Assembly: GCA_030390025.1 (NCBI GenBank)
Contig: CM059437.1
Span: 15,748,001 to 15,812,000 of the forward strand
Length of the DNA stretch: 64,000 nucleotides
Direction of reading: 5' to 3'
Source of the DNA: Squalus acanthias
Taxonomy: Eukaryota
Positions 1-39,017 of this stretch are shown in pieces. Position numbers and translations under genes: made by a program. The notes beneath the pieces are model-generated. The model was given only the letters and a program-made list of their open reading frames with translations, was not told the DNA's origin and did no database searches. Numbering within the stretch: the first letter of the stretch is position 1; every line of letters starts with the position of its first letter.

Positions 1-3000
1 CTAGCCCAAAGCTTTAATGCTCAATAACTGGAGCATCTACTTTAATAACAAAACCCTTACCAAAACCTGGGTCCTGTCATGAAACAAATTAATGCAAATC
101 TGCACAAAGAGCTGGATCTAAACGATAATTAGAGGACCTGAATAGGAATACAGATAGGCTACAATTCCAACCTTGTGGAGTTTTTAATATTCGATTTCCT
201 TAGGAAGTTTCATTTAGAGAAAGGAGCTGCTTTCCTATAGCATCGTACAATCGCTTTTTTTTTTATATGGAAATTTTTTTTTTCAAAAGTTCAGGAAAAT
301 AAAGTTTTTAAGGGTACGCGACTGTTGAATATTTCAGGTAGAACTTGCATTTTTTTTAATTAAAAACTGCTGACTGCAAATTTAAATGTTAAATCTGAAT
401 TACAGATTTTGCAAAGCTTTAGCTATAATGGTTTACAGTAATGATTGCTGTGTGAGTGTGGAATAGTTTAGAACGGGGTTTGAAATGCAGGGAAATTGCT
501 TTTGTGAGATTGTGATTAGTTAGGTGGCTGGGCAATAATGGTATCAAGAGTATCTGCACCAGGAGGGAATGTCTCTTATTCAGTGTACCGTGAATTACTA
601 GCACAAACAAAAATCATTAAACTGCAAATCTACACTTCACTGAGCCCGGGACCCGCATCATCTCTGATAGGACAATCAGCAAGTTTTTTCTCGTTGAGTA
701 TACCAATACTACGTTATACAGTCAAGCCAGGATACTAGCTGATCGAGCTTAAGCTATTCAGTCAGGTTAATCATCAGGCTCCTAATGCAACTCCTTACAT
801 TGAATAGGCATTTTTAGTCGAAACTCCACAAAATACAAATGTGCACAAGGCATTTTATTTGGAGGATGATTGATCCATTATCAGTTTGTGGTGCACTGTG
901 GGCCTATCAGGAAACATGTATTTCATGCACTATGATCTGATTTATTCTGTTTGCTTTTGTTAATAAAAAGTTATTGCAGGTAGTTGCATCAGAGAAGTAG
1001 GTCAGTACAATTCACTTTACTTACACTTAAGAACTCTAGCATAGTCATAACACATTACGTGAACATTTTTTATACAAGATAAATTCCTTCCCCTCCCCCC
1101 CAACCACCACCCCACTTATTGCTACACTCCGTGAGAGCAACCCATGGGTAAGTATCCTTAGCCAGTGGCAACTCAAGTGGCCATTCTTTGCATCAGCCAA
1201 GACAGTGAGATAGTAGCTAACCAACCCTGGAGTCCATCCCACCCAACTCCAATCCTTCCCTCGCCCAAAATCCACACATTCACTTCCAGCAAGTATAACT
1301 GGATAGAGATCAGATGGGAGATTGAACCCCATTTTAGCAACCCCATCCCAGCACAGAGCAGGAAGTAAATTTGGGACTTGAATAATTCTAAACATTAATT
1401 AGGTTAAAATTTACACATTAATTAGGTTAAAAGATTCAGGCTTCATTATCACCAAGTTTCCATTATAGTGAATGCAAATACAGAATTAGTCACAAACTGA
1501 AATCTGCTCACTCTTCCACTTAAGATGCCCACTGGATTCGATAAATCCAATACTCCTACCTTTGTGGTACTACCAGGCTCATGTGAGCTTGTATTGCACA
1601 AGACACAAAGCAGTAGGGTATCACCAAAGACAATTAGCTTTTTCTCTAGCGAGGATGCCAGTTGGTGAAGCCTCCCCAGTACTCCTACACACAATGTTTC
1701 AGGTATAAGTGTACTTTAAAACAAGGTCAGTTTAAATGTACTGGAATGGAGAATGTGGGAATAGATTCCAATTTGTAGAAACCCATTCAGCTTAGCAGAT
1801 GGCAAATCTTAACAGTGGGCACGGGCAGGACCATTATTGAAAATATTTAACATTTTCAATTCAAATAGACCCTTTTGCCCAAATTACCCTTGAGAATAAA
1901 TGAGGCCCCAAGTATTTACTACCAAGTGAACAACTTTAAGATTACAGGAGCAGGCTCTTTTACTTTGAGTAGGAAGCACACTGCAGTGCAGTCTCAATAG
2001 AGCACAAACTCCCCATCATGTCAGTTGACTTTTGAGTACATACTGGCTCAGGATTTAACTAAATTTAAATATTTGCAGAGCCTGAAATAAGCACTATTGT
2101 TCTATTTTACTAGTGCACGATAGACATACCAGCAGTACCTAGTCACTGAAATGCTGTGATGCAACAAGGCAGTCATTTCCATTAGTCTGACTGAATACAA
2201 AGAATAATTTGGAAACTGGACCTCAAGATAGAAGGGTGAGGTGTACCATAAGTAATAATTCAGACAGTATATGGCCCCATTCCTAGTAACAAGTTCAGAA
2301 TTAAAAGTGCAATTGCTTTATAGCACAAGATGGGGATGCTGGGATCTATGCTACATGCCCAGAACATTCAAAACTAACAGTATAGGAACATTTCCAATTG
2401 GAAAATGACACGACTGTAACGAGAGACATTCTTCCTGTTGGGTGTAGCATGCAGCCAATAGTGTAACGACTGTTAAGTGATGCTTTTACACGTTTATATT
2501 TACAGATTTTTAAATGTTTTTGATGCTTTTATATTCAATGCAGTGGTGTGCAGGACCAAGGTACACGTGGATATTTATACAGAGTACGCCTGTATTGGTT
2601 AGCTACTTGCCTCATAGCTTGTAAAAAGTGAAACCTTGTTGGAAGATTGCATTTTATGCTGCATAAATTTAGTTAATTTTGATACGGTTTGAAAATTGCA
2701 CAGCTTTGTAACTGAAGGAGGTTCAGCCATCGTCCATTCCAAAGGGCTTCTGGTTCTGGAAAGCAAATGTGACCAAGGCAGCCACGTTCTGATTTTACAA
2801 CCATTTTATTATGCAGCAGTTTCAGTAAAGCACCAGCATAATACTGCATTACTAGTTGATGGGCTGCACTCTATCAATGGCTGCCTGGGAACACTGAAGC
2901 ACTTAGTGGGAGGCGGGTTTAAAAAAAAGTACAAAATGTTACTGGCTTATAGGAACTCATCGGAATGAAGTTACAACACAAAAAGCGTCAGAGGTCCATT

Positions 3001-3170
3001 TTACAGGCACTGCTTGACCGGTACAAAAATGCTTATTGATATTTACATTGTAATTTGGTGCTTCTGTTCCATTTGGGACCACATTTGTACCAGAGCCAAT
3101 ACACATCATGTACAAGTCTCGCTGTAGATGTTTTGCATTGAAAAATAAATAAAACAAAACTGATCCCTAC
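1..3170 (+). other. Probable 3' UTR of a convergent plus-strand gene (SMARCD2 lies tail-to-tail with PSMC5 in human; identity not verifiable here)
   Basis: U-rich, repeat-poor sequence with no credible ORF; AATAAA at 962-967 and overlapping AATAAATAAA at 3144-3153. Gene identity is a synteny inference only. Confidence 0.45.
3144..3153 (+). terminator. Overlapping AATAAA polyadenylation signals of the plus-strand 3' UTR
   Basis: ttttgcattgaaaAATAAATAAAac at the end of the UTR-like region. Confidence 0.5.
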
Positions 3171-3859
3171 CGTATTTATTTCACAACTACTAATTTTGCA
3201 GGGGTGGGACAGAATTGGGTGAAACAGACGGCAGTAATTTCTGCAGGGGTTCTCCTACCATAACTTCCACGAAAAACCCTAGCGGGCTTCTCCTCAAAAC
3301 TCCCGCAGAAAGTCTGCTTCACCCAGATTATATTACTTGCATTTAAAAAAGTTAAGAGTAATATTGGGTGCAAAAAATCGAGAGCCTTACTGTTCCATCC
3401 CGGATTGGACAGTTTCACTGTCTTTAGACAGATAGAATGAACACTTCCTCCTCATTGCTGTTAACCCAAGTAAAACAATTTTGAGAGAAATCATTTATCA
3501 TGCAAAATGTAGGTTTACTGGACTAATACTGCGCAGACTTAATGGGAGGGAATAACCTATTTTCAATGTTTTATAAAAAGTCATCACAATAACCATCGGC
3601 TTTCCTGCGGGGGGGGGGGGCAAGATAGTAGAAATAGATTAAATTTGGTTCAAGCCTAAAGCTAGAAACCCGAAAAAAGGTCCTAAAGTGTCAAGCCCAG
3701 TCCCGGCGCACAAGTAACCTGACCCAGGTGGTCCAAATGAAACTCTCTTCAGAGAGATCGCTAAACACTATAACTCGTTATGTGTAGCAATAACCACCAA
3801 GTTACGATGAACACAATTAATAACTTTACAGTATTGAGTCTCAAGTGGTTTTATGAACA

Positions 3860-3865
3860 TTTATT
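3860..3865 (-). terminator. PSMC5: PSMC5 polyadenylation signal
   Basis: tttatt on plus = AATAAA on minus, about 90 nt past the TAA stop. Confidence 0.75.
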
Positions 3866-3951
3866 AAAGACAGGAAAGCTTACAATGATTTGATATTTTC
3901 GAACAGTAAAATCTCCCAACAGCCAGCTTACAGCAACCTCATGACATGCAT

Positions 3952-4005
3952 TTACTTCCAAAGCTTCTTGATGGACATGTTCTTTTCACTGTCCTTCTGC
4001 ATAAC
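3952..4005 (-). CDS. PSMC5: PSMC5 exon 12 (VMQKDSEKNMSIKKLWK*)
   Basis: Manual translation matches the PSMC5 C-terminus; AG acceptor at 4006-4007; TAA at 3952-3954. Confidence 0.97.
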   Translation of the reverse strand, partial: VMQKDSEKNMSIKKLWK

Positions 4006-4245
4006 CTACAATTAAGGAAAAGGATTTATTGATAATCACCATGAACAGCAAAGCATAACTAAGTGTCCGACAAAGCAACCTTTATTAAAATTAACCCTCA
4101 TAGATACACATGGGTTCTAAAAACAAACTAGAAGAACTGTTTTATTATTGGAAAAAATACATGTACCAAGTGAAAAATTCTAGATATGCCAATGGGGTGG
4201 CTTATGAGTCAATTTCCCTGCTCATGGAGTGGCCACCAAGACATG

Positions 4246-4428
4246 ATGCGGAGATGCCGGTGTTGGACTGGGGTGGACAAATGTGAGAAGTCGCACAACA
4301 CCAGGTTATAGTCCAACAGCTTTATTTGAAATCACAAGCTTTCGGAGCTGACTTCACCTGACGAAGGAGCAGCGCTCCGAAAGCTTGTGATTTCAAATAA
4401 AGCTGTTGGACTATAACCTGGTGTTGTG
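4246..4428. mobile_element. Fold-back Penelope-like fragment, family A copy 1
   Basis: Inverted arms; 12-bp TSD CACCAAGACATG at 4234-4245 and 4429-4440; hammerhead core followed by AATAAA. Confidence 0.8.
4354..4390 (+). ncRNA. Minimal type I hammerhead ribozyme motif
   Basis: tcac-CTGACGA-a-GGAGC(agc)GCTCC-GAAA-GCTT-gtga: core boxes, stem II, stem I tcac/gtga, palindromic AGCT stem III. Confidence 0.75.
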
Positions 4429-4467
4429 CACCAAGACATGGGAGAGTCTGTCACATGCCAATTACCA

Positions 4468-4690
4468 AAGTGTTGTGAATTTTTGGAATTCTCTACCCCC
4501 AAAGTGCTGTGGATGCTGAGTCGATGAGTATATTCAAGGCTGAATTTTTGGAATCAAGGGATATGGGAATCGGGGGCCGGGGGGAAATGGAGTTGAGGTC
4601 AAAGATCAGCCATGATCTTATTGAATGGCAGAGCAGACTCGAGGGGCCATATGGCCTAATCCTGCTCCTAATTCTTATATTCCTCTCATA
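4468..4690 (+). mobile_element. CR1 LINE 3' end fragment
   Basis: Similar to the 3' end of the CR1 copy ending at 26130 (gctgtggatgctgag...aagatcagccatgatctta...cctgctcctaattcttat). Confidence 0.75.
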
Positions 4691-4794
4691 CCTATAAAGT
4701 CATAGAGAGATAGTGCCTAATGTATTCCAGCAAAACACCAGGAATAGCTTCCTTCAGGACAGCTTTTATTTCTGGCACTTGTGCATAGAAATTA

Positions 4795-5250
4795 ATAATA
4801 AGTCATAGAGTCAGAACGGCACAGAAGGAGGCCATTCGGCCCATCAAGTCCGTGCTGGCTCTCTGTAGAGTAATCTAGTCAGTCCCATTCCCCCGCTCTA
4901 TTCCCTGCAAGTGCCTATCCAGTCTCCCCTTGAAAACATTGAGTGTCTCCGCTTCCACCACTCCAGTCGGCAGCGAGTTCCACGTCCTCACCACTCACTA
5001 CGTAAAAAAGATTTTCCTCACATCCCCCTGTATCTCTTGCCCAAAACCTTAAATCTGTGTCCCCTAGTCGGAACAGCCTTTCCCCGTCTAGCCTATCCAA
5101 ACCAGTCATAATCTTGTACAGGTCTATCAAGTCACCCCTCAACCTCCTTTGCTCTAATGAAAACAAATCCAGCTGCTCCAACCTGTCCTTGTAACTAAGA
5201 TTCCCCCATACCCGGAACCATTCTGGTAAATCTCCTCTGCACCCTCTCAA
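4795..5250 (-). mobile_element. CR1 LINE 3' fragment
   Basis: ORF 4915-5250 contains LSYKDRLEQLDLFSLEQRRLRGDLIDLYKIMTG, a CR1 ORF2 C-terminal motif. Confidence 0.85.
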
Positions 5251-5289
5251 GGGTGTGAAAAGTCATGGAGAGAAAGTTGGTTGAGAGAC

Positions 5290-6160
5290 AGGAAATGAAC
5301 AGTTTGTGTAAATTGGTGTTGCTCAGATTGAAGGGTTGAAAATGTGTATCCCGAGGGCAGTGCTGGAGCCACTTTTGTGCGTGTGGACTGTAAAAGACTT
5401 CAGCAAGACAGACAAGTTGACAGAATGGATAGACAAGTGGAAGGTGCAATTTAATGTAGAAAAAATGTGAGGAACACATTTTGGGCAGGGAAAAAAAAAA
5501 GGAAATGTATTGGAAAGACACTGCAGGGTGTGGATGAAGAGAGGGATCTAGGGGTTCAAATTCCCTGAAAGTGCAGGCAAATACAGCCAAATAAAAAGGC
5601 CAACAGCATTTTGGGTTTTATAAATAAGGTTGTAAGAGTACAAGAGCAAAGAAGTTAAAAAAGCAATTGTACAAAACATTGGTTAGACCTTGGTTAGAGT
5701 AGTTTTAGGTGCCCCATTATAGAAAATACATTAAACGTATAGAGTATACAGTATAGATTCACCAGGATGATGTTAGTAGTTATGAAAACAGACTAGATAT
5801 TAGGATTATTTCCACAGGAACAGGGAAGGTTAAAAAGATCTAATAGACATCTTTAAAATGATTAAGGGTTTTGGTAGAGTGAATAGCAAGACTATTTCTT
5901 CTGGTACGGGAGTCAATGGTGAGGAGATCATCAATTTAAAATAGTCACTTGAATGAGGAGAGAGATGAGGAGAAATTTCTTTACAAGGAGGGTTGCTGGT
6001 GCATGGAATGCTTTGCCATAAGGAGTTCTTGACGCAGAGATCACTGCATCTTTCAAGGCCAAATTGGACCAATACTAGAAACAGAGGGAGATACAGGGTA
6101 TCGGATTCGTTTTGGATTGCCGTCCAAATGGCCTGCTATGCTACAAATCTCTGATTATAA
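5290..6160 (+). mobile_element. Old degenerate CR1 LINE fragment
   Basis: Decayed RT and C-terminal motifs (cagggcagtgctggagccact, gaatggatagacaagtgg, gattcaccaggatgat, gagaaatttctttaca). Confidence 0.6.
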
Positions 6161-6414
6161 GAAACCAGATAGGAGGCCAGCCTATTGTTCCCTCTTTGCC
6201 ATCCCCAAGCTTCTGGCCACATATGATTCCAGTAACCTGTCTCACACATTCACAACTTGTATCTCAATATTTCTTTTGATGTCAACATTATACAAAGTCT
6301 GAATATTCTACCTAAAATAGAACAGTTTTGCGATGAAGCGTATGGATTTCGTACGAGAAAAATTTCCAACACCTTATTGCTTTTGGTCAAGAAAAATGAC
6401 AGAATTCTCAATCA

Positions 6415-6567
<153 letters not shown>

Positions 6568-7018
6568 CTAGTACTGCAGACAGCAGTTAATCACAGCAAT
6601 GCAGATATAATGCATGTACTCCGTTCTTAGTAGGTTGTATTGGAAACGTTTAATAAGCTACACAATTGAGAGGCTTTGCTGATCTACCATCCAGTCAGAT
6701 TTAGCCAGTTGGCAAACTAACAAATTAAACAAGGCAATTAATTTTTCACAATAAAACAAATCTAACTTAGTGCAGAACTTCACAATTAAAAGGAGACTGC
6801 AGGTTTGCTTTGAACAATTTGACTTAATATGCAAGTGCAAAGTATCTAAATTGCCAATATCTTTCGGCTTTACCACTTGGTTGGAGCAGATTCAAGTGTT
6901 AGGAAAGACTATTGCGGTGTATGATGTCCTATACTATTTACACATTTAGAGGAAAAAAACAGTCATGGACTTGGCAGTGGTGCAGTTTCCAATCAGCAGA
7001 GTTAAGATAATTGGGTTA

Positions 7019-7234
<216 letters not shown>

Positions 7235-7899
7235 TCAAGCAGATTGGCTTTTGTGAGAGGCCGTGTGTTGGATTGGATTTGCAGCACTCAAAGCGGAGTC
7301 TGGGAACACTTGGCTTTTAAGCAAAATAACGTTAGTCACCAACTACGTGGAATTTCAGAAGTTACTGTGAATCAAAGTGCTGTGGCCAACTAATAACTTT
7401 TGCTGGAGCTGCAAAAAATATCACTGCTGCTTTGGAAACTAATGTTTAAGAGTGGCAACTTTTAAATTAAATAGTTCTAAGTAATAAAGAAACTACATGA
7501 AGCTTCCTTAAACAGGTACAGAGCTCCTATTTACCAGTTATGGTTCATAAAGATGCCCAGGGAATTTACTGTCCCACCCTGATGGCTTACACTGTCCCAC
7601 CCACGCCACCCCTAACAACAAACTAAAAGCAGAGTACAGTCGCAGGATATCATCTGTGACTAATGAGTAGAACAGGACCAAAGTAAACAGATGCAGAGTT
7701 TCCATTTACAAACACAGATGTTGAACTACTGCCATCAAAAACAAAGGGCAAGTATCTTTCCAACGAACTTTATCATTTTATGATTGAACGCTGATGCTGC
7801 AAGATAAGTCTAAAACAGTTGGCTTCTTGAATTTCATCGTGAAATGATAACGTCAAAAAAAAAAATCATTGCGGTCGCCCGATACAATTCCAAACTCAC

Positions 7900-7998
7900 C
7901 GCTTCATTTGGAGGAGGGAATTCAATTTTCCTGTCAATTCGCCCTGGTCGCAGCAACGCAGGATCCAGGATGTCAATTCTGTTGGTTGCCATGATTAC
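7900..7998 (-). CDS. PSMC5: PSMC5 exon 9 ([33 protein letters not shown]; AAA second region of homology)
   Basis: 99 nt within ORF 7834-8154; AG/GT bounded. Confidence 0.97.
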
Positions 7999-8368
7999 CT
8001 GCGCCAAACATGGAAACAGATAAAAAGCTTGAATCATCGGTCTGCAGAGCCAATAATAATTTAGATTCTGTTCAGGACCCACACGGATTATTTTCATTTC
8101 TCTCTGGCCTGACACCAACCACATATTTATTCCTCTAGCTCCCTGTTCAATCAATCAATCAGGGAGACTCCTTCTCTCATCTACCAGACTAATGCCAGGA
8201 ACCATAGCTAGGCTAGGACTCCGATGTATGCACAAAGGGATGTACTTCTCCACATAACCAACCATGGCCTAATGCAAAGAAGACAGCCTCCAGTGAAGAA
8301 ATTACTTACTACTTTTTTTCACCAGTGTTGTGGCCTAGAGGAAGAGAAGCTCACCTCCATGTACCCTA

Positions 8369-8827
<459 letters not shown>

Positions 8828-8985
8828 CTACAGATTTTTGCTTGCTAAATCTGTCAGTGAGGATGTTTCCTGTTAACGGCACAGATTATTTTGGCCAATT
8901 TCCACCATTTGGGAAAGAGGAGGATAATTAAAGCCATCTCGCCTAATCCACATTTATTCTAAGCTAAAAGAAACTTCAAAGTCGA

Positions 8986-9088
8986 GAAATAACAACAGAA
9001 AACGCTGGAAAAACTCAGCAGGCCAGGCAGCATCCGTGGAGAGAGAAACAGAGTTAACGTTTCAGGTCGAAAACCTTTCATCAGACCT
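8986..9088 (-). mobile_element. Penelope-like fragment, family B, single arm with hammerhead motif at 9052-9088
   Basis: Minus strand reads aggt-CTGATGA-a-AGGT(tttcg)ACCT-GAAA-CGTT-aact; homologous to 43144-43368. Confidence 0.7.
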
Positions 9089-9149
9089 TATTTTTGAAGA
9101 GTCAGACGTCTGTCAACCGATCCTTTTGATCAGATTAAAGGCTGTAACT

Positions 9150-10190
9150 TTCCAATGGCTCAGTAGGTAACAGAAACAACCTAGTGGTGCTGGGTAATTC
9201 AGACCAGGATAGTACCAGGTTTGAGCTGAATTGGCTCAAAAGATTTTCAAACAGAGGTCCCCAGGGAGTCGGAGATCATATTCCTCTATTTTCAATATTT
9301 ATTCGTTTACCAGCATGTAATTTCTATTGCTGAATACCAAGACATTTTTCTGCAATGATAGAACTGATTCCTTTGGATAGCTGGCAAACTGGTCCCTGGA
9401 AGTGTGTCAATATTTGTAAGGGGTCCTCAGGAGTGTGTTGATATTTGCAAGGAGTCACCCACACAGAAATATTTCAAAACCATTGGATTAGGAGATCTCA
9501 GCCATAGCAGTGATACGCGACTACAATGGCCTCAGTGTTTCCCATGCTAGGGAAAGGAGCGGGATAAAAGGTCAAGATTCTTACTCCTCATTAGTATCCA
9601 GTAAAACCCACTGAAAGTATTAGTGTCTAGACATCAGGTAAAGAAAGCAGGCTTGGCTTTGACATCTCTTCTTTGCCTCACTGTTGAGTTTCCTAACACT
9701 CACAGACATATGAAGAATAATCACTTGGACATAGTGGAGGGCTGCTGACACCCATGGAATTGTACCTCAGCATGGATCATTGCTTTCAGAAGACAGGAAA
9801 TAGCAAGAACTGAAAAATAAAATATAGCCTGTACCTCACCCCCAGATGTCTTATTCATGTAATGGTCCAACTTTTGATCCACTCATATCTCAGATCTGCA
9901 GTGAGTTAGTTGATCTCAGCCGGACCCAGAGAGGCTACAACTAGCCTCGATGCTCTGCCCTGAACGGGGGGGGGGGGGGGGGGGGGGGTGGTTGGAGCAA
10001 ACCAGCCTGGATTCCTATCCGATGTCCCTTGCTAGAAAATGCTCAGCTGTGAATGTCAAATGAGGACAGGATCAGGCTTGGTTCAGATACCCCCAGATGG
10101 GCTAATGGACCGCACACACACGGTCAAGACTCACATGAATAACAGGCACTTGAATGAGAATCCAGAGGGCTGCCAATGCCCTTGGAACAA
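9150..10190 (+). mobile_element. Degenerate ancient SINE-like repeats (two pieces), possibly with a decayed hAT-like insert at 9237-9485
   Basis: Shared motifs with 30995-31390 (ttccaatggctcagt; cacccatggaat; ttcaggaaagg-like tail). Confidence 0.45.
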
Positions 10191-10324
10191 TACCCAGACA
10201 CAAATAATCAACTCTAGAAAAGGGAAGACAACCAGGGGGAGAAGAAACAAAAATAGTGGACAAACTCCGTTAGTTACATAATGCACACAACACAATGTAG
10301 TCTCTGCTTGGCTCAAGTCTGAAA

Positions 10325-10470
10325 CACACTCACTTGAGTCAGAAGGTTGTGGGTTCAATCCAACTCCACGACTTGGACGTTTAACCTAGGCTGGCATTGC
10401 AGTGCAGTCTGAGGGAGTGCTACATTGACAAAGATGCCAACCTTCAGAGGAAACATTAAACAGAGGCCTC
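10325..10470 (+). mobile_element. 5' part of a tRNA-derived SINE
   Basis: tcagaaggttgtgggttcaa...gcagtgcag matches the SINE at 36915-37360. Confidence 0.7.
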
Positions 10471-10480
10471 AAGCACATAC

Positions 10481-10607
10481 CTTCACCAATGAATTTCTGT
10501 ACAAGTTCAGAACCAGATACGCGGATGAAAGTGCAGTCAGTGTGGTGAGCCACAGCTCTTGCTAGCAGTGTCTTCCCGGTGCCTGGAGGTCCATATAGCA
10601 GCACACC
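10481..10607 (-). CDS. PSMC5: PSMC5 exon 7 (Walker A GPPGTGKT)
   Basis: 127 nt, [42 protein letters not shown]; AG/GT bounded. Confidence 0.97.
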
Positions 10608-13469
10608 CTACAATATATTAAATGTACAGATGAGATCTAATGGCGATCAGTAAAACTCTGTGGGAGCAAACTTTACAACAGATTTTCTGCCTTTAACAAT
10701 AGATGCAAAGACTATATCAGGTTTAACTCAGTCACAGAGGATTTAGCCCTGTCAAAAGAGTTTGTTAGGAACATTTTAGCTGCATCAGTTAGAATTTCTA
10801 GAACCTTTTGTATTTGAGAAAATAAATTGACAACTTTTTTTTTAAGTATATGGCCAACCATAAGTAACCCTAGACCAACATCATCTACTCAAAAGCAGCA
10901 CAAACTACAGGCCTATTGCTATTGCCACCAATACCATAGAACACATTCCCCTCTCGCACAATGTGGAAAATACAGGGGAGCTGCCCAGCACTTTGAAAGT
11001 ACCTGAAAGTACCAGAAGCACAAGCGTTAGCCAGCAACATTCATGCAGAGGAAGTGGAACATTAAAGGGTATTCATTTTAACTGATGTTCACCAATAAAT
11101 TTCCAGCTGGTAACCTTTCAGTTATTACTGATTTTTTAAAACCAGAAAACTGGCAAACTTGCCAAATCGTACAAGTTACCAAAAATCTCCAAACTGAGGA
11201 GTGAAATCTTTCCGACACAAGGAACAACGACGTGCATTCATATAGCGCCTTTAATGTAGCAAAATTGTCCCAAGGCGTTTGGGACGTTTTACTACTTGGG
11301 AATGGTTTGCAAATGCAGGTTATTGCTGATCTGGTGCAAGTATCAAGATAAAAAAAACCCAGTTCCAGCGATATACAACAGAGCATCAATATGTGGTGCC
11401 ATAGAGTGATGAGACAAGGATTGTCCACATCAAAAAAAAACAACTCCTCTGCGCTCCCAATCTCCTCCACAATGCCAAGGGGAGGTATTGAGCGGAGGCC
11501 AGGCACTTACCCATAGAAAGGAATTTTAAAAAGATCAATGAAAAAAACAGAACTGTTGCCCTTTGTTCCTTATGACTGATCATTGCTAAAGCAAATACAT
11601 TTGATGTTCCCAGCGTTTGATAGATCGGTCACAGAATTTTCTTGCCAGAGAAATTGGATCCTAACTCCTGCAAAATTCTAGGAGGCTCATTATAAATCTA
11701 TTACGACACTGAATTAAACAACTAATTTCACTTAACAACATCATATTGTTAAAGGGCTATAAATGAACCTTATTGGACTGGAAGTGATTGTGGGCCAGGA
11801 AAACACACAGCAACAGGCCGAGAAACCAAAAGTCACTGATATTTGAATGGAAGAAATGTGCAAAACTCAGACTCCCTTTACTATAGCATTCTAGCAAGAA
11901 GCTTGTAATTTAGCCTTGAAACCACATTTAATTTCTGGCTTGGCAATAGCCTATTTTGTCGCACATTTAGCAGAGTGCCGCTTACAAACGCAAGTAGCTT
12001 TTGGCTCCCTGTCCTCATCAAACGAGTTTATTCAGCTCTAATAAACATGACACATTGTAAAGTGTGTAAATAAAAGTAATTTGATGGTAAAACACTTTGC
12101 AGAGTTTTAATCTTCAAGGAACTCCTGTCTTGAGGTGCCCTAGCAGCCAAAGGGTAGCGAGTTAGAATAATCAGATTTTCAAAGTGCTCTGTTCTGGAGA
12201 TTTCTTCCAGTTAAGCTTGGTTACCAATCAACATTTGATATTTATTTTCAAACCTTTTGAATAAAATGGGTGAAAAACTAGACATGCCTGTGTGGCAAGA
12301 ACTGAACATTTCCATAAACATCAGGCACACAGTGGGACTGTACACCAAGTACTTGGATGTTATACAGATCAGTTGCCAGCCAGCACTTTCCGCACCAGCT
12401 AGATTTTCCCTGAAATGAATAAACTGCTTCCTATAGTGAGTAACCAATTACAGATTAGAAAAATCAGTAAAAGCAAGTAACACAGTTTAAAATTGAAATT
12501 CTATCATCTGGGTGGGGCAGGGAGCTGGAAGTGGAGAGAAGGGCGGAGGAATGAGCATTTTGAGTGAACCTTTTCTGAACACGGTTCCAAGGCACTCAAA
12601 CTCACTGTTCAAAACAATAAGTACCTCGGTGACTACTTGCACTTCTGAAAGATTTTAAGTATGAATCGAGGAGGATATTCATTTTCATATTCTTGTACCG
12701 CAATTTTTCTATATCACATTTTCCCCTTCGTAAAGGATTTAAAATGGGCCAGATAATAATGATCTTCACTTTAAGGCAGTGAACATAAACACATTGCCAC
12801 ACAGTGCCGGAAATCCAGAACTACAAGACACAACACAAGAGTTTTTAATTCAACTGGATACCAAGTTTTAAAAATCGCACCAGAAATTAAATCATGAAGT
12901 ATGGACAGAATACTACATTTTGAATAGAGTTTCAGCTGGCCTGGCTAGCGCAGTACTGGAGCAATGTAGTTCATTAGACATTAAATAAAATGCTTTCAAT
13001 GGATAGAAGAATGATGCTAAAAAAAAAATGATGTTACCCAAACCAAGCTCCCTCATAGGTGGGCACCCAGAGTCTACAGCTGGAAGTATCCTCCAACCTA
13101 TTTGGAGCATTTTACAATTTTTGGCAATGTTTTCGCAATTGCTTGTGGGAGTGAGACCTCATGCTGTAGCATTTAAATTCCCTGCTGCCGAACTCAAACA
13201 TAAACTTATGCTCAATACATTTTTTGGGGGCGCGTATGATACAAATGAACAGGGTTGCAGCTGGCAGCCGGTGAAGTTCGCACACTGCCTCTCTACAAAA
13301 GCAGAATCCATGAGCAAACCCCATCTGCACCAGGGACTTCAGCCTCAAGTTTCACTTGGAGAAGCAAATCCAAACACCAATACAGCAATTTTGGCAAGGG
13401 AGAAAGGAAAACAAAAAATAAGGAAACATTTAACCACTAACTCATCAATTATAAATCTATTAAATTAAT

Positions 13470-19312: not shown

Positions 19313-20718
19313 TTCAGACAGTGGGATGGGGTAAATAACCCTCCAATTTTAACTTGCTGTTAGTGGTTATAGCACCTGGAAGTGGAGGTCAATAAATGAC
19401 CATGTGGGGAAACGTCTCAAGTGCAGGCCGGTATCCTTACACTCCATGAAACACATTCCAGTTCCAACAAGCTGTGCCACTTAGAGATGGCATACTATTT
19501 AAAACACACATCAATTATTAATAGGGAAATCATCAATCTTTAATAATTCCCACTCAATTACATACCCTACATACTGTAAGCAGCAACAAAAAACTGAAAG
19601 ATTGTACATGTTGCATTACCGGAGGTGGGGTGAGCAAGCAGGCTACACATCAGCACAGAAAAAAATTCTCTCAATGAGTTCCTACCCTATTCCAGAAGCT
19701 TAAATATTTGATTAAACAGCCAGCCCTGTAATCCACTACAATAAACGATCCTTCAAGCAGTTAGGATTAAGTGTGGAGTCTCATCTTCCACATCGGTGCC
19801 AAGGACATGATGTCCCACTCTCCAGTACACTCATGCCTCACCACAATGAGTGTTGAAAAAGAAAATACAGTGTACAGGAAGCCGATTTGTATCAACCGTT
19901 ATGTGAAGACCGGCTGCCATCAGACATTGCTGCAGAAACAGTGGGCAGTGTGGTCAGCAAGGATAGGGCACAGACGTGAATCTACCGCAATGGGTATGAG
20001 CTTTTTGTAATCTTGATAGAAAAGCTGTTCTACAACAAAAGCCATTCACGTGATTCAAAGCCTTTGTTATAGAAACTACAGGTAATCTTGGGCAGTCACC
20101 ATACTGGCCATTATTACACCATATGAATTTCATGCCAGATATTCCTGGAATTATACAGGTTTCAATTCCAGGGTCCGAGGGCAAGCAACACTGAATAGGG
20201 AATTGCTAATGAATTAACCCATACAGACTCAGACACAAATTGCACATCTCTAGGAAAGTCATGGTTAGGTATCAAAATAGGGGGAAAAAAAACATCCATA
20301 CAACAGATGCAAGTTCACATGAGCAGACACATTGGGGTTACAAATTAGAATCTCTATCTCGCAGGTGAATGCAATCAGCAGTGACATTTTCTGTCAGCAA
20401 AACAGTGGTTTCAAAATGTAACTATGGTTTTTTTTGGAAAATTGAAGTAATATTAAATAAGGAACCACTTTCTCTCAGACTCTCATCTCTCTCCCTATCC
20501 CTGCTCTCTCTCCCCCCTCAGTTTAATAAATTTTTTGCAGTTTAAAAAAAAACACAAAAGCTGCAACAGGTGTGTCGTCAACATACTGTTATACACAGCC
20601 TGTTGTTTTAAAAAAATATATAGAAATTTTACCCAAGTAAAGCTTTGAAAATTTGTCTCTTGTTTTTTTCCCCAAAGCTACGAAGTAGAAAGTGATAGGA
20701 GCTAACGAAAAATATCCC

Positions 20719-21055
20719 TGATGTGGAGATGCGGGTTGGACTGGGGTGGACAAATGTGAGAAGTCGCACAACACCAGGTTATAGTCCAACAGTTTTATTT
20801 GAAATCACAAGCTTTCGGAGCTTTTCCATACAGACCCCAGCATCTGCCACATTTGACCCCTTGTGACCCCACCTCATTGTCTTTGATGTAATGTTTTCCT
20901 GACTGACCTGTTTGGACACCATCCACACCTTTGATTGCCGTGATTATCTCTCTGCCGAGGTGCGATAAAGGGCAGTTAGAAAGATTAACTGTAGTCATCT
21001 GGCAGTGTTCTCTGACTATATATGCTGTGCCTATATGCATCTCTTCACTTCACCT
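20719..21055. mobile_element. Penelope-like fragment, family A copy 2
   Basis: Inverted 3' end homologous to 4246-4348, then about 230 bp of extra sequence ending cttcacct(ga); 12-bp TSD GAAAAATATCCC at 20707-20718 and 21056-21067. Confidence 0.75.
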
Positions 21056-21402
21056 GAAAAATATCCCAGCAGTGGAGCTGACTGAATAGTTTTGCTTTCT
21101 AGGTACACTGCACATGCTCAAACTGCACAATCTAAATTCAGCTGAGAGTCACAGCTCAGGGCAAATATATCAAGTCCCAGCCCGTGCTTTTAGAGAGGCC
21201 GAGGCCTCGAAGTAATGACTTCAATGAAAACATTAAAAAAGAGACAAAAGACAATCCAATGCATACATTTAATAATGCTGTGAAACATGTATTTTTGAAT
21301 TTTTAGTTTAAACCTTTATTTTGGGCATTAGAAACTTCACATGCTAGACTAACAGGTACTTAGGAGTTTTCAATCAATCGCAAGCCCCGTGTATCGAATT
21401 TA

Positions 21403-21922: not shown

Positions 21923-24900
21923 TTTTTTTTAATTCGTTCCTGGGATGTGGGTGTTGCTGGCATGGCCAGCATTTATTGCCCACATCTAATTGCCCTTGAG
22001 AAGGTGGCACTGAGTCGCCTTCTTGAACTGCTGCAGTCCGTGTGGTGAAGGTACTCCCACAGTGCTGTTCGGGAGGGAGTTCCAGGATTTTGACCCAGCG
22101 ACGATGAAGGAACGGAGATATATTTCCAAGTCAGGATGGTGTGCAACTTGGAGGGGAACTTCAGGTGATGGCGTTCCTATGCGCCTACTGACCTTGTCCT
22201 TCTAGGTGGTAGAGGTCGCGGGTTTGGGAGGCGCTGCCGAAGAAGCCTTGGCGAGTTGCTGCAGTGCATTTTGTAGATGGTACACACTGCAGCCACGGTG
22301 CGCCAGTGGTGCAGAGAGTGAATGTTTAAGGTGGTGGATGGGGTGCGAATCAAGCGGGCTGCTTTGTCCTGGATGCTGTGGAGCTTCTTGAGTGTTGTTG
22401 GAGCTGCACTCATCCAGGCAAGTGGAGAGTATTCCATCACACTCCTGACTTGTGCCTTGTAGATGATGGAAAGGTTTTGGGGAGTAAGGAGGTGAGACAC
22501 TCGCCGCAGAATACCCAGCCTCTGACCTGCTCTTGTTGCCACAGTATTTATGTGGCTGGTCCAGTTAAGTTTCTGGTCAATGGTGACCCCCAGGATGTTG
22601 ATGGTGGGGGATTCGGCGATGGTAATGCCGTTGAATGTCAAGGGGCGGTGATTAGACTCTCGCTTGTTGGAGATAGTCATTGCCTGGCACTTGTGTGGCA
22701 TGAATATTACTTGCCATTTATCAGCCCAAGCCTGAATGTCATCCAGGTCTTGCTGCAGTCGGGCATGGACTGCTTCATTATCTGAGGAGTTGCGAATGGA
22801 ACTGAACACTGTGCAATCATCTGCGAACATCCCCATTTCTGACCTTATGATGGAGGGAAGGTCATTGATGAAGCAGCTCAAGATGGTTGGGCCTAGGACA
22901 CTGCCCTGAGGAACTCCTGAAGCGATGTCCTGGGGCTAAGATGATTGACCTCCAATAACCACAACCATCTTCCTTTGTACGAGGTATGACTCCAGCCAGT
23001 GGAAAGTTTTCCCGATTCCCATCAATTTTACTAGAGCTTCTTGATGCCACAGTCGGTCAAATGCTGCCTTGATGTCAAGGGCAGTCACCCTCACCTCGGG
23101 AATGCAGCTCTTTTATCCATGTTTGGACCAAAGTAATGAGGTCTGGAGCCGAGTGGTCTTGGCAGAACCCAAACTGAGCATCGGTGAGCAGGTTATTGGT
23201 AAGTGCCGCTTGATAGCACTGCCGACAACACCTTCCATCACTTTGCTGATGATTGAGAGTAGACGGATGGGGCAGTAATTGGCCAGATTGGATTTGTCCT
23301 GCTTTTTGTGGACAGGACATACCTGGGCAGTTTTCCATATCGTCAGGTAGATGCCAGTGTTGTAGCTGTACTGGAACAGTTTGGCTAGAGGCGTGGCTAG
23401 TTCTGGAGCAGAAGTCTTCGGCATGACAGCCGGGATGTTGTAAGGGCACATAGCCTTTGCTGTATCCAGTGCGTTCAGCCATTTCTTGATATCACGTGGA
23501 ATGAATTGAATTGCCTGAAGACTGGCTTCTGTGATGGTGGGTACCTCAGGAGGAGGCCGATATGGATCATCCACTTGGCACTTCTGGCTGAAGATGGTTG
23601 CAAACGCTTCAGCCTTGTCTTTTGCACTCGCATGATGGGTTCCAGCAGCATTGAGGATGGGGATATTCCTGGAGCCTCCTCCTCCCCCCGTTCGTTGTTT
23701 AATTGTCCACCACCATTCACGACTGGATGTGGCAGGACCGTAGAGCTTTGATCTGATCCGTTGATTGTGGGATCGCTTAGCTCTGTCTATAACATGCTGC
23801 TTCCACTGTTTAGCATGCATGTAGTTCTGTGTTGCAGCTTCCCCAGGTTGGCACCTCATTTTTAGGTACGCTTGGTGCTGCTCCTGGCATGCTGTTCTGC
23901 ACACCTCATTGAACCAGGGTTGGTCCCCTGGCTTGATGGTAATGGTAGAATGAGGGATATGCCGGGACATAAGTTTACAGATTATGGTGGAATACAATTC
24001 TGCTGCTGCTGATGGCCCACAGCGCCTCATGGATGCCCAGTTTTGAGCTGCTAGATCTGTTCTGAATCTATCCCATTTAGCACGGTGGTAGTGCCACACA
24101 ACACGATGGAGGGTGTCCTCAGTGTGAAGACGAGATTTTGTCTCCACAAGGATGGTACGGTGGTCAGTGCTACCAATGCTGTCATGGACAGATGCATCTG
24201 CGACAGATAGATTGGGGAGGACGAGGTCAAGTAGGTTTTTCCCTCGTGTTGGTTCTCTCATCACCTGCCGTAGTTAGTCTGGCAATTATGTCCTTCAGGA
24301 CTCGGCCAGCTCGGTCAGTAGTGGTGCTACTGAACCACTCTTGGTGCTGGACATTGAAGTCCCCCACTCAGATTACATTCTGTGCCCTTGCTACCCTAAG
24401 TGCTTCTTCCAAGTGGTGTTCAACATGGAGGAGTACTGATTCATCAGCTGAGGGAGAGCGTAAGGTGGTAATCAGCAGGAGATTCCTTGCCCATGCTTGA
24501 CCTTAAGCCATGAGACTTCATGGGGTCCGGAGTCAATGTTGAGGACTCCCAGGGCCACTCCCTCCCGAATACCACTGTGCTGCCACCTCTGGTGGGTCTG
24601 GACATACCCAGCGATGGTGATGGAGGAATCTGGGGCATTGGCTGAAAGGTATGCTTCTGTGAGTATGACTATGTCAGGCTGTTGCTTGACTAGTCTGTGG
24701 GACAGCTCTCCCATTTCGGCACAAGTCCCCAGATGTTAATGAGGAGGACTTTGCAGGGTCAACTGGGCTGGTGTGCCGTTGTTGTGTTTGAAGCCGGTGC
24801 CGAGGTCGATCTGGTTTTATTCTTATTATTGTTTTTCGTAGCGGTTTGTTACAAGTGAGTGGCTTGCTGGGCCATTTCAGAGGGCAGTTAAGAGTCAACC

Positions 24901-25170
24901 ACATTGCTGTGGGTCTGGAGTCACATATAGGCCAGACCAGGTAAGGACAGCAGATTTCCTTCCCTAAAGAACATTAGTGAACCAGATGGGGTTTTTACGA
25001 CAATCCGATAGTTTCATGGTCACTGATATTAGCCTTTTGTTCCAGGTTTATTTAATTAACTTAATTTAAATTTCCCAGCTGCCATGATGGGATTTTAACT
25101 CACGTCTCTGGATCATTAGTCCAGGCCTCTGGATTACTAGTCCAGTAAGCTAACCATTATGCTACCATTC
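21923..25170 (-). mobile_element. Apparently full-length, frameshifted APE-RT LINE (CR1/L2 group) with a tRNA-SINE-like 5' head
   Basis: Endonuclease KQQPDIVILTEAYL and EPTRGKNLLDLVL; RT NYCPIRLLSIISKVME and GMFADDCTV across ORFs 24472-24714, 23113-24264 and 22177-22881; A-rich tail at about 21923-21931. Confidence 0.9.
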
Positions 25171-25179
25171 ATGTAAGTT

Positions 25180-26130
25180 AGTTTTACGCAAGATAAGGGC
25201 TCATGGGGTCGGGGGTAATATATTAGCATGGACAGAGTATTGGTTAACGGACAGAAAACAGAGAGTAGGGATAAACGGATCATTTTTAGGTTGGCAGGCT
25301 GTAACTAGTGAGGTGCCACGAGGATCAGTGCTTGGGCTTCAGCTATTTACAGTCTATTTTAATGGCTTAGATGAAGGGACCAAGTGTAATGTATCCAAGT
25401 TTGCTGACGATACAAAGTTAGGTGGGAAAGTAAGCTGTGATGAGGTATATAGACAGGTAAAGCGAGTGGGCAATGAGGTGGCAGATGGGGTATAATGTGA
25501 GGAAATGTGAGGTTATTCAGTTTGGTAGGAAGAATAGAAAAACAGAAATGTTTTTAAATGGTGAGAAACTATTAAAGGATGGTGTTCCTCGTACAGGAAA
25601 CACAAGAGTTAGCATGCAGGTACAGCAAGCAATGTACAGGGCTTTGGTGAGTCCACACCTGGAGTACTGTGCAGAGTTTTGGTCTCCTTATTTGAGGACC
25701 TTGGAGGCTGTGCAACGAAGGTTCACTAGATTGATCCCTGGGATGAGAGGGTTGTCCTATGAGGAGAGATTGAGTAGATTGATTGGGCCTATACTCTCTG
25801 GAGTTTAGAAGAATGAGAGGTGATCTCATCGAAACATACAAGATTCTGAGGAGGATTGACAGGGTAGATGCTGAGAGATTGTTTCCCCTGGCTGGAGAGT
25901 CTAGAGCTGGGGGCATAGTCTCAGGATAAGGGGTTGGCCATTTAGGACGGAAACAAGGAGGAATGTCTCCAGTCAGAGGGTTGTGAATATCTACCTCAAA
26001 GGGCTGTGGATGCTGAATCATTGAGTATCTTCACGGCTGAGACAGATAGATCTTTGGACTCTAGGGGAATCAAAGGATATGGGGATCCGGCGGGAAAGTG
26101 GAGTTGAGGTCGAAGATCAGCCATGATCTT
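25180..26130 (+). mobile_element. CR1 LINE RT and 3' fragment; its 5' continuation is at about 21883-21922
   Basis: VSKFADDTKLGG and PHLEYCAEFWSPYL motifs in ORFs 25313-25495 and 25473-25808. Confidence 0.9.
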
Positions 26131-26269
26131 ACTGAATGGTGGAGCAGGCTCGAGCAGCCGTATGGCCTGCTCCTGCTCCTAATTCTTATGTGCCTCTCAG
26201 AAAATAATTTTCAGGACAGTGCCCAAATAAATTGAATTTAATCTTTGTTAATTTTCTCCCTTGAAATGC

Positions 26270-27170
<901 letters not shown>

Positions 27171-27522
27171 TCATATTCATTTGGAATGGTATCAATTCAC
27201 ATACAAAGACTAGATGCTAGTAAACAAATTCAAATGAGAACACTGGAGGACTACCTGGCCGTCAGTAAATTTTAGAATTCAAATATGCTGCTACGGACAG
27301 TGTCTAAAAAACATTATTAAACCCATCAGGAGAGAAATGATTCCTAAGGCACTCTGCCTTTTTAACCAACAAAAGATTTTATCAATTTTAACACAAATAA
27401 AATAAATAGACTGCAGTGTTGAAAGGCAGATGACAGCATAAACAATAGTGAGTTATTTGATAAATTTTAGAAACTGATTTCATAATTTGGCTGGCAACTA
27501 TATACTGGACTTCCATGATACG

Positions 27523-28076
27523 CCTTTCCACCATCTACAAGGCACAAGTAAGGAGTGTGATGGAATACTCTCCACTTGCCTGGATGAGTGCAGCTCCAAC
27601 AACACTCAAGAAGCTCGACACCATCCAGGACAAAGCAGCCCGCTTGATTGGCACCCCATCCACCACCTTAAACATTCACTCCCTCCACCACCGGCGTACC
27701 GTGGCTGCAGTGTGTACCATCTACAAGATGCACTGCAGCAACTCGCCAAGGCTTCTTCGGCAGCACCTCCCGAACCCGCGACCTCTTCCACCTAGAAGGA
27801 CAAGGGCAGCAGGTGCATGGGAACACCACCACCTCCAAGTTCCCCTCCAAGTCACACACCATTCTGACTTGGAAATATATCGCCGATCCTTCATCGTCGC
27901 TGGGTCAAAATCCTGGAACTCCCTCCCTAACAGCACTGCGGGAGTACCTTCACCACACGGACTGCAGCGGTTCAAGAAGGCGGCTCACCACCACCTTCTC
28001 AAGGGCAACTAGGGATGGGCAATAAATGCTGGCATCGCCAGCGACGCCCAGATCCCATAAAAACTAATTTTTAAAA
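27523..28076 (+). mobile_element. 5'-truncated copy of the LINE family at 21923-25170
   Basis: ORF 27515-28012 YKAQVRSVMEYSPLAWMSAAPTTLKKL is nearly identical to ORF 22177-22881. Confidence 0.9.
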
Positions 28077-28522: not shown

Positions 28523-30727
28523 CTGAAATCAAAGCACACATACAATTAGCAAAAGTTGCTGAGACGACAAGGATACAACACAAAGGAAGGTTCCGCAAGT
28601 TACCGATTGCGGTGCCGATGCTCTGAACAGCTTTCCAACAGTGTGGCGAGAGATCAATGCACCTATCTGTATGGTAAAAATTAGAGAAACTACATGCTTG
28701 GCATTTGCAAACAAAACTGAAACAAAAGGAAGCTTACAGGGCAATACGTGCATTTACTTAGCACTTTGTCAAAACATCTCAAAAATTATTTTGCACAACA
28801 AGTTACTTTTGAAGAGTAGGGACTTAGATGGACAAAAACAGCAGTCTGATACCAGGATCAGTAACGAGTGGTACAGACCATCAAAAAGGCAAGAAACTTT
28901 TAGTGACTGTACTTCAAAAGCTAATCCACTGATTGTAAAGCATTTGGGACTTTTTACAGATGTAGAAAGGTGCTGTATACGTGCAAGTTTGTTCTTTTTA
29001 TGAATTTTACAAACTTTTATCACAGTATTCACAAAGAGAGCTAAAATTCAGGAAAAAATTCAGTTCTGCATGCAAACTACAGGCAGCAAATTCAGACCAC
29101 TAGCGATTCCTTGAAGGGAAAACCGAAAGGCAAACAGGCTTCTTTGACTTCTCTCTTGTATTTTTGTTTCTATTTGTCTCCCTAATTGTTAAGCGTCCAA
29201 GTCCAGATTTGAAATTTGGAGTAAATCAGATTCTGAGCTGTTCTGGATGGGAAAGGTCAGGGTTCAACACTTGGTATTACTAGTAATATTTTATACAGAG
29301 GCAAATATGCACACACAGTGCCTCCAACCAGAAACAGAACCTTAAAATTACTGTCTACTGTCAATTGCAATATACATATAGTTAAGAGATCCCAGAGGAC
29401 TGAACATTTAAATCACTACAGCACTGGCTTCCTGCCTTACAATTACAACACAAAATTGAATTTGAAGGGCCACGAATTGCAAGTGACGCCAAATTTCTAC
29501 CGCCCTCAATTTTCCGAGCTCATATCAACACAGCGTAACTAAAGGGGATTCGAGCTAAAGTTGAAAAATTATTCAGTCAGTCACCCCAATCCAGCATTTT
29601 GAAATGCACCTTCTGGGAATGAGGAGCGAGGCAAAAATCTTAAAAATATAAACTAATTCAGGTTAACAGTGTAAGTAACCCAATTTAAAAAAGAAAGAAG
29701 CCTCCCTGTTCAACTGCAGCAAGAGTCTGCATTTACAAATGCTGTGGAATCAAAGAAACAAGATATTTTAGCACTCAAACTTACCCGCATGGTGCTGGAG
29801 ATTGATGTTTTATATTTAGGAAAACAATTTTCTGGGCAATTGCAGATTCTTCAAGTCACTGAGACAATGCCTGCAGATTATAAGGAAAAGGTTACTGAAT
29901 TTCACAGTTACAATCACATTACTAGAGAAAGACGACCAGAATGTGAATAAGACAGCTTTATAATTGAATAGACTGGACATAACTGTGTGATGGGAAGAAT
30001 CCAGCTCAGTCAGCACTGTATGCCTCTGTGGAGCACTTTGAGACATTTTTCTGCATTAAAGATGCTGTATAAAGCTGTTGTGATGACTACTAGACACACA
30101 AAAAAGACACTCCTGCCTTTGAGCTTAAGTGCGCATATCCCGAAATCCATGGTCAGTTTTAAATTGCATAAAAGAATCTCACATAGATTCTATACAAATT
30201 TTGGTTATCTGCAAAATGGAGAATGCAGGAGGAAAACAAGACTAAGTGGTTTTGTAAGTCGTGGGAGGAAAGGGGATTTTTCCTCCTCCACCCACCACAC
30301 AGTACATCATGACAGATACTGTATCATCGAATTAAATATCAGTGTCAAGATGCCTTAAATCAACATCGACTCTGATGCGGATGCTTTTTCCATCAACAGT
30401 TATCAATTGATCGAAGTCTAAAGTAAAACTTAAAATTTTCAAATTCAACGACTTTCTGAAACCCTGTTCAGGTCACTGAGGAATGCCTTTAAAAACCGTA
30501 GTTTGCCTGCCAGCTTAGAACTTGGAACGTAGAAGATATGGGCAACAAAATATCCAATGGCAGAGTTATCAATACTGATAATCCCGCTCCCTGCCGATAA
30601 ATGTATTACTTTATACTCGATAAATGTATTCGATAAATGTACAGTATCAGATCTCTTAAGTCAGCCAACGTGCAATTAAGAGGAAGGCCAGTAGCTATCC
30701 AGAATCACCCAGGTATTGATTTAAGTA

Positions 30728-30930
30728 AGAAGTCGCACAACACCAGGTTATAGTCCCAACAGTTTTATTTGAAATCACAAGCTTTCGGAGCGGCTGCTCC
30801 TTCGTCAGGTGACGAAGGAGCAGCCGCTCCGAAAGCTTGTGATTTCAAATAAAACTGTTGGGACTATAACCTGGTGTTGTGCGACTTCTCACTTTTGTCC
30901 ACCCCAGTCCAACACCGGCATCTCCGCATC
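30728..30930. mobile_element. Fold-back Penelope-like fragment, family A copy 3
   Basis: 80-bp arms 30728-30807 and 30810-30889; 12-bp TSD TTGATTTAAGTA at 30716-30727 and 30931-30942. Confidence 0.85.
30775..30812 (-). ncRNA. Minimal type I hammerhead ribozyme motif, sense to PSMC5 pre-mRNA
   Basis: Minus strand reads tcac-CTGACGA-a-GGAGC(agcc)GCTCC-GAAA-GCTT-gtga. Confidence 0.75.
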
Positions 30931-30994
30931 TTGATTTAAGTAGTTCAATATTATATCAACCAGAATTTAATTTTGTTCCCAAGTGAAACAGCTC

Positions 30995-37891: not shown

Positions 37892-38229
37892 CTGCGTCTT
37901 AAAGCGAGACTGTCCCGACCGTGCGTCTTAAAGCGAGACTGTCCCGACCGTGCGTCTTAAAGCGAGACTGTCCCGACCGTGCGTCTTAAAGCGAGACTGT
38001 CCCGACCGTGCGTCTTAAAGCGAGACTGTCCCCACCGTGCGTCTTAAAGCGAGACTGTCCCCACCGTGCGTCTTAAAGCGAGACTGTCCCCACCGTGCGT
38101 CTTAAAGCGAGACTGTCCCCACCGTGCGTCTTAAAGCGAGACTGTCCCCACCGTGCGTCTTCAAGCGACACTGTCCCCACCGTTCGTCTTCAAGCGACAC
38201 TGTCCCCACCGTGCGTCTTCAAGCGAGAC
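37892..38229. repeat. 29-bp minisatellite, about 11.7 copies
   Basis: Unit GTGCGTCTTAAAGCGAGACTGTCCC(G/C)ACC head-to-tail with no spacers. Confidence 0.97.
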
Positions 38230-38801: not shown

Positions 38802-39017
38802 CAGACTATTGCAAGATGCTGGAAATCTGATACAAAAGCAGAAAATGATGGACACACTCAGCAGGTCAGAGAGCATTCATCCAGAAAACACAAATCAGTT
38901 AGTGTTTGAGGTATAAACCCTTTTTCAGAATGGAGGGTTTATACCTGAAACATCAACTGATTCATGTTTTCCTGACAGATGTTGCCTGACCTGCTGAGCA
39001 TCGCCAGCATTTCCTGT
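38802..39017. mobile_element. Degenerate fold-back Penelope-like fragment, family B
   Basis: Inverted arms (gaggtataaaccct / agggtttatacctg); 14-bp direct repeat CAATGTGATATGGT at 38788-38801 and 39018-39031. Confidence 0.65.

Follow-up and report, generated by a model that had tools for sequence, protein, structure and literature searches.

Penelope-like elements (PLEs) carry minimal hammerhead ribozymes (min-HHRs), which the consulted portions of PMC4209133 describe as type I motifs with a 4-bp helix I, an extra base between positions 9 and 10.1, a G10.1-C11.1 pair and a palindrome at positions 15.2-16.2. According to the same portions, these motifs are mostly solitary, are tied to truncated PLEs and show low activity even as dimers, and pairs on opposite strands 100-700 bp apart have been reported. 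PLE insertions are highly 5'-truncated, often bear at their 5' end a truncated copy in inverted orientation, and have a one-sided tail of 30-40 bp (passages of PMC8557442 and PMC3846280), with target duplications of 8-10 bp in rotifers (PMC3846280, same passages). How the inverted ends and tails form was called still undefined in 2021 in a passage of PMC8557442. For PAc, a Poseidon-type PLE of Anolis carolinensis, the passages seen of PMC11167929 report that both target strands are nicked and extended in vitro, that reverse transcription starts at two internal sites bounding the tail with uncut RNA as the main template, and that the hammerhead cuts only when the protein is present. Non-LTR retrozymes consist of tandem head-to-tail repeats (150-450 nt) that are processed to circles (excerpt of PMC7229834), and retrozymes have been reported in one chondrichthyan genome (excerpts of PMC7229834 and bioRxiv 10.64898/2026.07.22.740005).

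Here we analysed a 183-nt insertion, 4246-4428, in a 64-kb window (the whole stretch of DNA studied, 64,000 nucleotides). A first-pass annotation had claimed a fold-back insertion at this place, and this is what we observed: a perfect inverted repeat of two 56-nt arms (4293-4348 and 4374-4429, 100% complementary) between exact 12-nt direct repeats, the insert being built of a 47-nt one-sided tail, a 56-nt arm, a 25-nt loop and a 56-nt arm. Its parts are as follows.

4234-4245, no strand: left target-site duplication, 12 nt
4246-4292, minus strand: tail, 47 nt, the element 3' end, on the main arm only
4293-4348, minus strand: main arm, 5'-truncated, starting within hammerhead stem II
4349-4350, no strand: two junction bases, matched by neither arm nor the upstream sequence of copy 2 (see below)
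4351-4428, plus strand: inverted arm in element sense, its first base being the A of the copy 2 initiator
4429-4440, no strand: right target-site duplication, 12 nt

The end of the tail is identical to the end in the related copies at 20719 and 30930. The last 3 nt of the left duplication (4243-4245) also match the element 3' end, leaving this boundary ambiguous by 3 nt, and contigs from other copies extend to 4243. The main arm lacks a CUGANGA core because its start falls inside stem II, and it holds an AATAAA in PSMC5 sense at 4326-4321. The inverted arm stops 47 nt before the element 3' end and contains stop codons in all frames. The two junction bases may be a cap-derived G, or may reflect arms copied from templates differing in loop II length. 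Altogether, the insert is most probably a dead stub of a PLE terminal repeat (pseudo-LTR), with a hammerhead predicted to be inactive and an origin from two primers.

This anatomy resembles that of endonuclease-positive PLEs, which in the passages of PMC8557442 and PMC3846280 likewise have head-to-head arms, a one-sided tail, a target duplication, a palindromic junction and a TATA-spacer-TCACT motif. In contrast to these elements, the insert consists of the last 100-125 nt of the repeat only, with no ORF between the arms; the tail, 41-47 nt here, exceeds the 30-40 bp given in those passages, and the 12-nt duplication exceeds the rotifer range of 8-10 bp (passages of PMC3846280).

The loop and the second arm contain the hammerhead, for which a descriptor scan and a stem comparison gave the following features.

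4354-4390, plus strand: minimal type I hammerhead motif
4354-4357 and 4387-4390, plus strand: stem I, 4 bp, UCAC and GUGA
4358-4364, plus strand: core CUGACGA
4365, plus strand: extra A between positions 9 and 10.1
4366-4370 and 4374-4378, plus strand: stem II, 5 bp with a 3-nt loop, GGAGC and GCUCC
4379-4382, plus strand: GAAA
4382-4385, plus strand: palindromic AGCU, positions 15.2-16.2
4384-4386, plus strand: CUU, H17 being U4386, with predicted cleavage after 4386
4396-4401, plus strand: AATAAA

Every hammerhead part named by the first-pass annotation was found where it had been placed. The G10.1-C11.1 pair is present as G4366-C4378, so that 4354-4390 has all four published features of Penelope-element hammerheads, in common with the min-HHRs of metazoan PLE pseudo-LTRs (portions of PMC4209133). 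Helix II differs, with 5 bp here against 7-8 bp in the Schistosoma min-HHRs of those portions, and no shark min-HHR was found in the portions searched of the PMC4209133 text and supplements, figures apart. The class of minimal hammerheads in PLEs was thus already described in 2014, and 4354-4390 belongs to it by motif and by insertion anatomy. We found no description of the 4246-4428 family in sharks in the literature searched, and the family may well be named in Dfam or Repbase.

We then asked how the motif compares with chance expectation. A strict minimal-hammerhead descriptor, a check that had been proposed with the first reading, matched 4 sites of the window, where 200 shuffles had a mean of 0.03 and a maximum of 1; a looser pattern gave 5 against 1.30 (0 of 100 shuffles reached 5). 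The fifth loose CUGANGA...GAAA match, 52814-52842 on the minus strand, has no strict stems and is either chance or a very old relic. The Rfam search proposed at the same time turned out differently, with no hammerhead family among 14 matches (E up to 10, positions 1-12000); Rfam models built on a real stem III would probably overlook minimal motifs. Rfam miRNA matches to the insert hairpin were below threshold and were put aside as shape matches, such perfect hairpins being a trap for both miRNA and MITE annotation. The four intact motifs of the window come from two families, and the core is kept while the stems differ between them (four sequences and two families only): all but one of the 36 stem cells pair, and both sides have changed in 7 of the 9 pairs, the slid controls pairing at 17-49%. 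The best 40 of 106 substitution rows include 7 within the element; one, in the hammerhead, is the single such row within 4349-4395, namely U17 to C at 28% of the depth in run X5. This change retains a cleavable triplet. Among the best 12 of 50 indel rows, loop II accounts for 2 and the junction for 3. In run X5, five contigs also show a loose end at 4373, after loop II, running into an AGC-repeat and then into unrelated sequence, which could represent a loop II variant family or a microsatellite insertion.

Could the motif be a chance or degenerate match in a palindromic MITE-like DNA element, or could the insert be an assembly artefact? Besides the silence of Rfam, the isolated motif folds just modestly better than shuffles (z -1.3), and assembly errors can produce long inverted repeats. 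Against this stand the excess of strict sites, a second family with the same core and different stems, an asymmetric tail, 12-nt duplication and variable arms that are not MITE features, and similar junctions in contigs from other runs. Such explanations are largely refuted, and we give them almost no weight.

BLAST inside the window revealed two further copies of the 4246-4428 family, and a second hammerhead family was also present.

20719-21057: copy 2, with main arm 20822-20719 (minus strand) and inverted upstream piece 20823-21057 (plus strand)
20707-20718 and 21056-21067: copy 2 duplication, 12 nt
30728-30930: copy 3, a near-perfect fold-back with a 2-nt loop and a 41-nt tail
30808, minus strand: C3 of the copy 3 core, which is intact
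30716-30727 and 30931-30942: copy 3 duplication, 12 nt
8986-9088, 38802-39016 and 43134-43367: second hammerhead family

In copy 2, the main arm starts within stem II and the inverted piece of 235 nt ends in the 11 nt found at 4351-4361. Copy 2 is an L1-like twin-priming structure that exposes upstream element sequence. Past its duplication, 21068-21080 resembles the element 3' end 20719-20731 (25 nt at 84%, duplication included), a likeness that may hint at homology-aided target choice. The three family copies share a common 3' end and a 12-nt duplication (3 of 3), have no poly(A) and are variably truncated at the 5' end, where they show three different structures. The second family has the same core with an ACGU palindrome, its stems and downstream sequence being unrelated to those of the first (best between-family BLAST E 0.08); two of its three copies are fold-backs with a one-sided tail, and a duplication (about 14 nt) was found for one of the three, the degenerate 38802-39016. 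Tails measure 47 and 41 nt in the first family and about 30 and 37 nt in the second. Thus, of the six window inserts, four combine a fold-back with a tail of about 30-47 nt, and a fifth has an inverted upstream piece. All of the 10 aligned arms run through the predicted cut site, indicating that their templates were uncut RNA.

To extend these observations beyond the window, contigs from four runs were aligned to 3850-4750. In all three large runs (DNA or unlabelled), summed contig depth, which is no copy number, was 15-28 over the unique flank and about 1-6 million over the element. Finding three family copies within 64 kb agrees with this, and the element is a very high-copy repeat. Among the joints listed, at least 14 different ones fall inside the element. 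Eight of these 14 resume at 4350-4357, and three more rows at 4351 have 1-4 letters between, a pile-up that is partly forced, the reference having no sense sequence upstream of 4351. The other six resume at 4382-4399, three of them at 4388, 4389 and 4391, at most 5 nt past the predicted cut; such joints around the cut site or beyond it may mean that cut RNA gave rise to some of the copies at other loci. Contigs of two relatives (organisms B and C) cease to match at 4233 and continue with 78 letters of other sequence, the pattern of an empty site, the joint itself being absent from the rows listed; an insert-free site thus indirectly appears to exist in both, and the insert would hence be recent and not conserved. 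Run X5 gave no cover at 4098-4221.

The first-pass annotation had read the insertion as a small non-autonomous self-cleaving retroelement family. A dedicated family of this kind, in which a Penelope-like reverse transcriptase acting in trans would mobilise transcripts of a short non-coding source (promoter, hammerhead and tail) or of the fold-back itself, could account for the very high abundance in contigs, for the nearly identical 5' limit of five of the six window inserts (4-7 nt before C3), for some junction variants whose summed depth is 370-1336 against 15-28 for single-copy DNA, and for the stops in all three frames of the 235 upstream nt of copy 2; moreover, non-autonomous PLE derivatives are described in passages of PMC8557442 and bioRxiv 10.64898/2026.07.22.740005. 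However, three of three family copies have three different structures, the joints are many and distinct, no tandem arrangement exists within the window, and recurrent formation could itself yield shared junctions in so large a family. The three 5' structures, the 235 nt of extra upstream sequence and the many joints therefore point to independent truncated products rather than to a self-copying unit. Of the first reading, the Penelope-type minimal hammerhead in a retro-insertion stands and the small non-autonomous self-cleaving family lacks support, although the source locus itself may be non-autonomous; we regard a dedicated family as improbable. Non-LTR retrozymes, as described in excerpts of PMC7229834 and bioRxiv 10.64898/2026.07.22.740005, are non-coding, hammerhead-bearing, PLE-related and of high copy number, as is the element here. 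Unlike them, in so far as those excerpts go, the copies here are scattered, stand head-to-head or singly and carry a minimal motif, and none of the three family copies in the window (0 of 3) forms head-to-tail tandem units.

We return to the dead PLE stub as the preferred reading. On the strand that corresponds to the tailed cDNA, the loop bases of copies 1 (4246-4428) and 3 read in sense. We rejected a simple snap-back of the first cDNA on this ground, and the same observation indicates that two cDNAs were joined at their 3' ends; the copy 3 junction shows a 3-nt microhomology. In the mechanism that we propose, a reverse transcriptase/endonuclease protein would nick both target strands 12 nt apart, the distance seen as the duplication. 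One 3' end would prime reverse transcription at a distal start site and give the arm with the tail, and the other would prime at a proximal site 47 nt upstream and give the arm without it. Both cDNAs would run a short distance towards the RNA 5' end, across the uncut hammerhead, and would then be joined head to head. The palindrome may also arise by self-priming on an antisense template, as proposed in a passage of PMC3846280. Two further candidates were set aside: a conserved 3' stem-loop near the priming points, of 9 bp in copy 1, failed to outdo shuffled sequence in all four tries (z -0.15 to -1.0), and AATAAA was rejected as the signal for the template 3' end, no copy having poly(A) and the tail extending beyond AATAAA.

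This mechanism is close to what the passages seen of PMC11167929 report for PAc, namely a hammerhead near the transcript 5' end, two downstream priming points, an uncut template and use of both target strands. Two differences are apparent from the same passages: the PAc start codon lies in the hammerhead core whereas the core here has ACG and is followed by stops in all three frames, and short head-to-head run-off stubs are absent from the account of PAc in those passages. No PLE reverse transcriptase or GIY-YIG ORF was evident among the window ORFs of at least 100 aa, read by eye. Searches for copies outside gave 0 loci with the downstream 22-mer in viral, genome and metagenome contigs and 0 loci for the core pattern in metagenome and genome contigs, as expected since the repeat is of animal origin.

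Copy 2, which extends upstream of the fold-back, allowed us to look for a promoter, and the following motifs were found in its upstream piece.

21017-21023, plus strand: TATA, TATATAT
21045-21051, plus strand: initiator TCACTTC, with its A at 21047

The initiator A lies exactly 30 nt downstream of the TATA, a pairing that occurs at 6 of 127,900 window positions; this promoter motif is known from one copy and was defined after looking. A second TATAT lies at about 21033. Position 21047 is equivalent to 4351, with which the inverted arm of 4246-4428 begins. Since this arm stops at an initiator A with a TATA at -30, it is likely a run-off product primed on the repeat copy at the 5' end and halted at the likely transcription start. 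Copy 2 is the one exception among the six window inserts to the shared 5' limit, and for the three inserts of the second family this limit is read with no upstream reference sequence. That the element transcript begins just before stem I, the stubs being run-off products, has in our view close to an even chance. We consider somewhat more tentatively that the bulk of the Penelope stubs of 100-130 nt in this lineage are strong-stop-like run-off cDNAs with a capped start, not random 5' truncations. Under such a scheme, the TATA/initiator promoter would start the element mRNA 7 nt ahead of the hammerhead core and the ribozyme would form the first 40 nt of the message, so that cutting would decap the mRNA. 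Reverse transcription primed internally, about 80 and 125 nt further downstream, would end by run-off at the cap; with both target strands serving as primers, perhaps on two RNAs held by a protein dimer, head-to-head fold-backs would result. The structure of copy 2 does not fit this pattern. If the scheme is true, every stub would record the transcript start and two priming sites, in some 100,000 copies, and short, young, abundant fold-backs with clean duplications would allow the two-primer and run-off steps to be tested by junction counts. No description of the run-off model was found in the literature searched. As to related promoters, the consulted part of PMC2377424 gives the Drosophila Penelope element a TATA-less internal promoter, in contrast to the TATA motif of the copy 2 repeat, and a passage of PMC3846280 gives a TATA-20 bp-TCACT motif for the rotifer pLTR.

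Whether the copy at 4246-4428 could cleave itself was addressed by folding. In isolation (4350-4395), the hammerhead fold is the minimum free energy structure, with stem pair probabilities above 0.98, and the AGCU duplex that would form the dimer contact contributes only -2.5 kcal/mol. In the whole insert, the hammerhead stems have probability 0 and the compatible ensemble is 27.9 kcal/mol worse, as judged by an equilibrium calculation. The 3' half of the ribozyme is part of one arm of a 56-bp hairpin, into which either strand of the insert folds (z about -17 and -18). Co-transcriptional folding would presumably favour the hairpin too, since arm 1 is transcribed before the ribozyme. In the parent element, the motif would likely cut slowly, as a dimer or aided by the element protein, and would process the transcript; the hammerhead at 4246-4428 would be a passenger.

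The host gene was determined from its last two coding exons.

6448-6534, minus strand: PSMC5 penultimate exon
3948-4006, minus strand: PSMC5 last coding exon, stop position approximate

The exon 6448-6534 encodes 29 residues that are all identical to 26S protease regulatory subunit 8 (29/29), and the insert lies within the last PSMC5 intron (about 4007-6447), 240 nt from the splice acceptor, which upholds the placement given by the first reading. PSMC5 is on the minus strand and the hammerhead on the plus strand, so that the ribozyme is antisense to the gene and the PSMC5 pre-mRNA carries its reverse complement; the minus strand of the insert contains no CUGANGA. Self-cleavage by this copy is predicted to be unlikely because it is antisense to PSMC5 and buried in the hairpin. 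Hence the ribozyme find itself matters little: its class has been known since 2014, this copy is predicted to be inert and it lies outside the PSMC5 message.

An effect on the host could take other forms, with the hairpin in the PSMC5 transcript serving as an editing or small-RNA substrate, AATAAA causing premature termination, or the hammerhead cutting an antisense transcript. In favour are the perfect 56-bp duplex on either strand, the AATAAA at 4326 in gene sense and the position of the insert, 240 nt from the last acceptor. However, the duplex encloses this AATAAA, intron RNA is as a rule broken down, organism A has an RNA-like contig that departs from the genome at 4007, as a message spliced at the last acceptor would, and the insert is apparently absent in the two relatives. 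We therefore see no sign of a role of the insert for PSMC5, and consider a host effect very unlikely.

Other repeats occur in the window. ORF fragments that we take to be of LINE-type reverse transcriptases, CR1/L2-like, are found at 22177-24273 (minus strand), 27464-28057 (plus strand), 33766-35384 (minus strand), 25154-26199 and 4492-5620; the stretch 33766-34986 stays open for 406 aa. A tandem repeat of about 58 nt in roughly 6 units (91-97% identity) lies at 37893-38229, after a GC-rich stretch, and a 246-nt direct repeat, 26262-26507 and 26835-27077, has 94% identity between units 573 nt apart.
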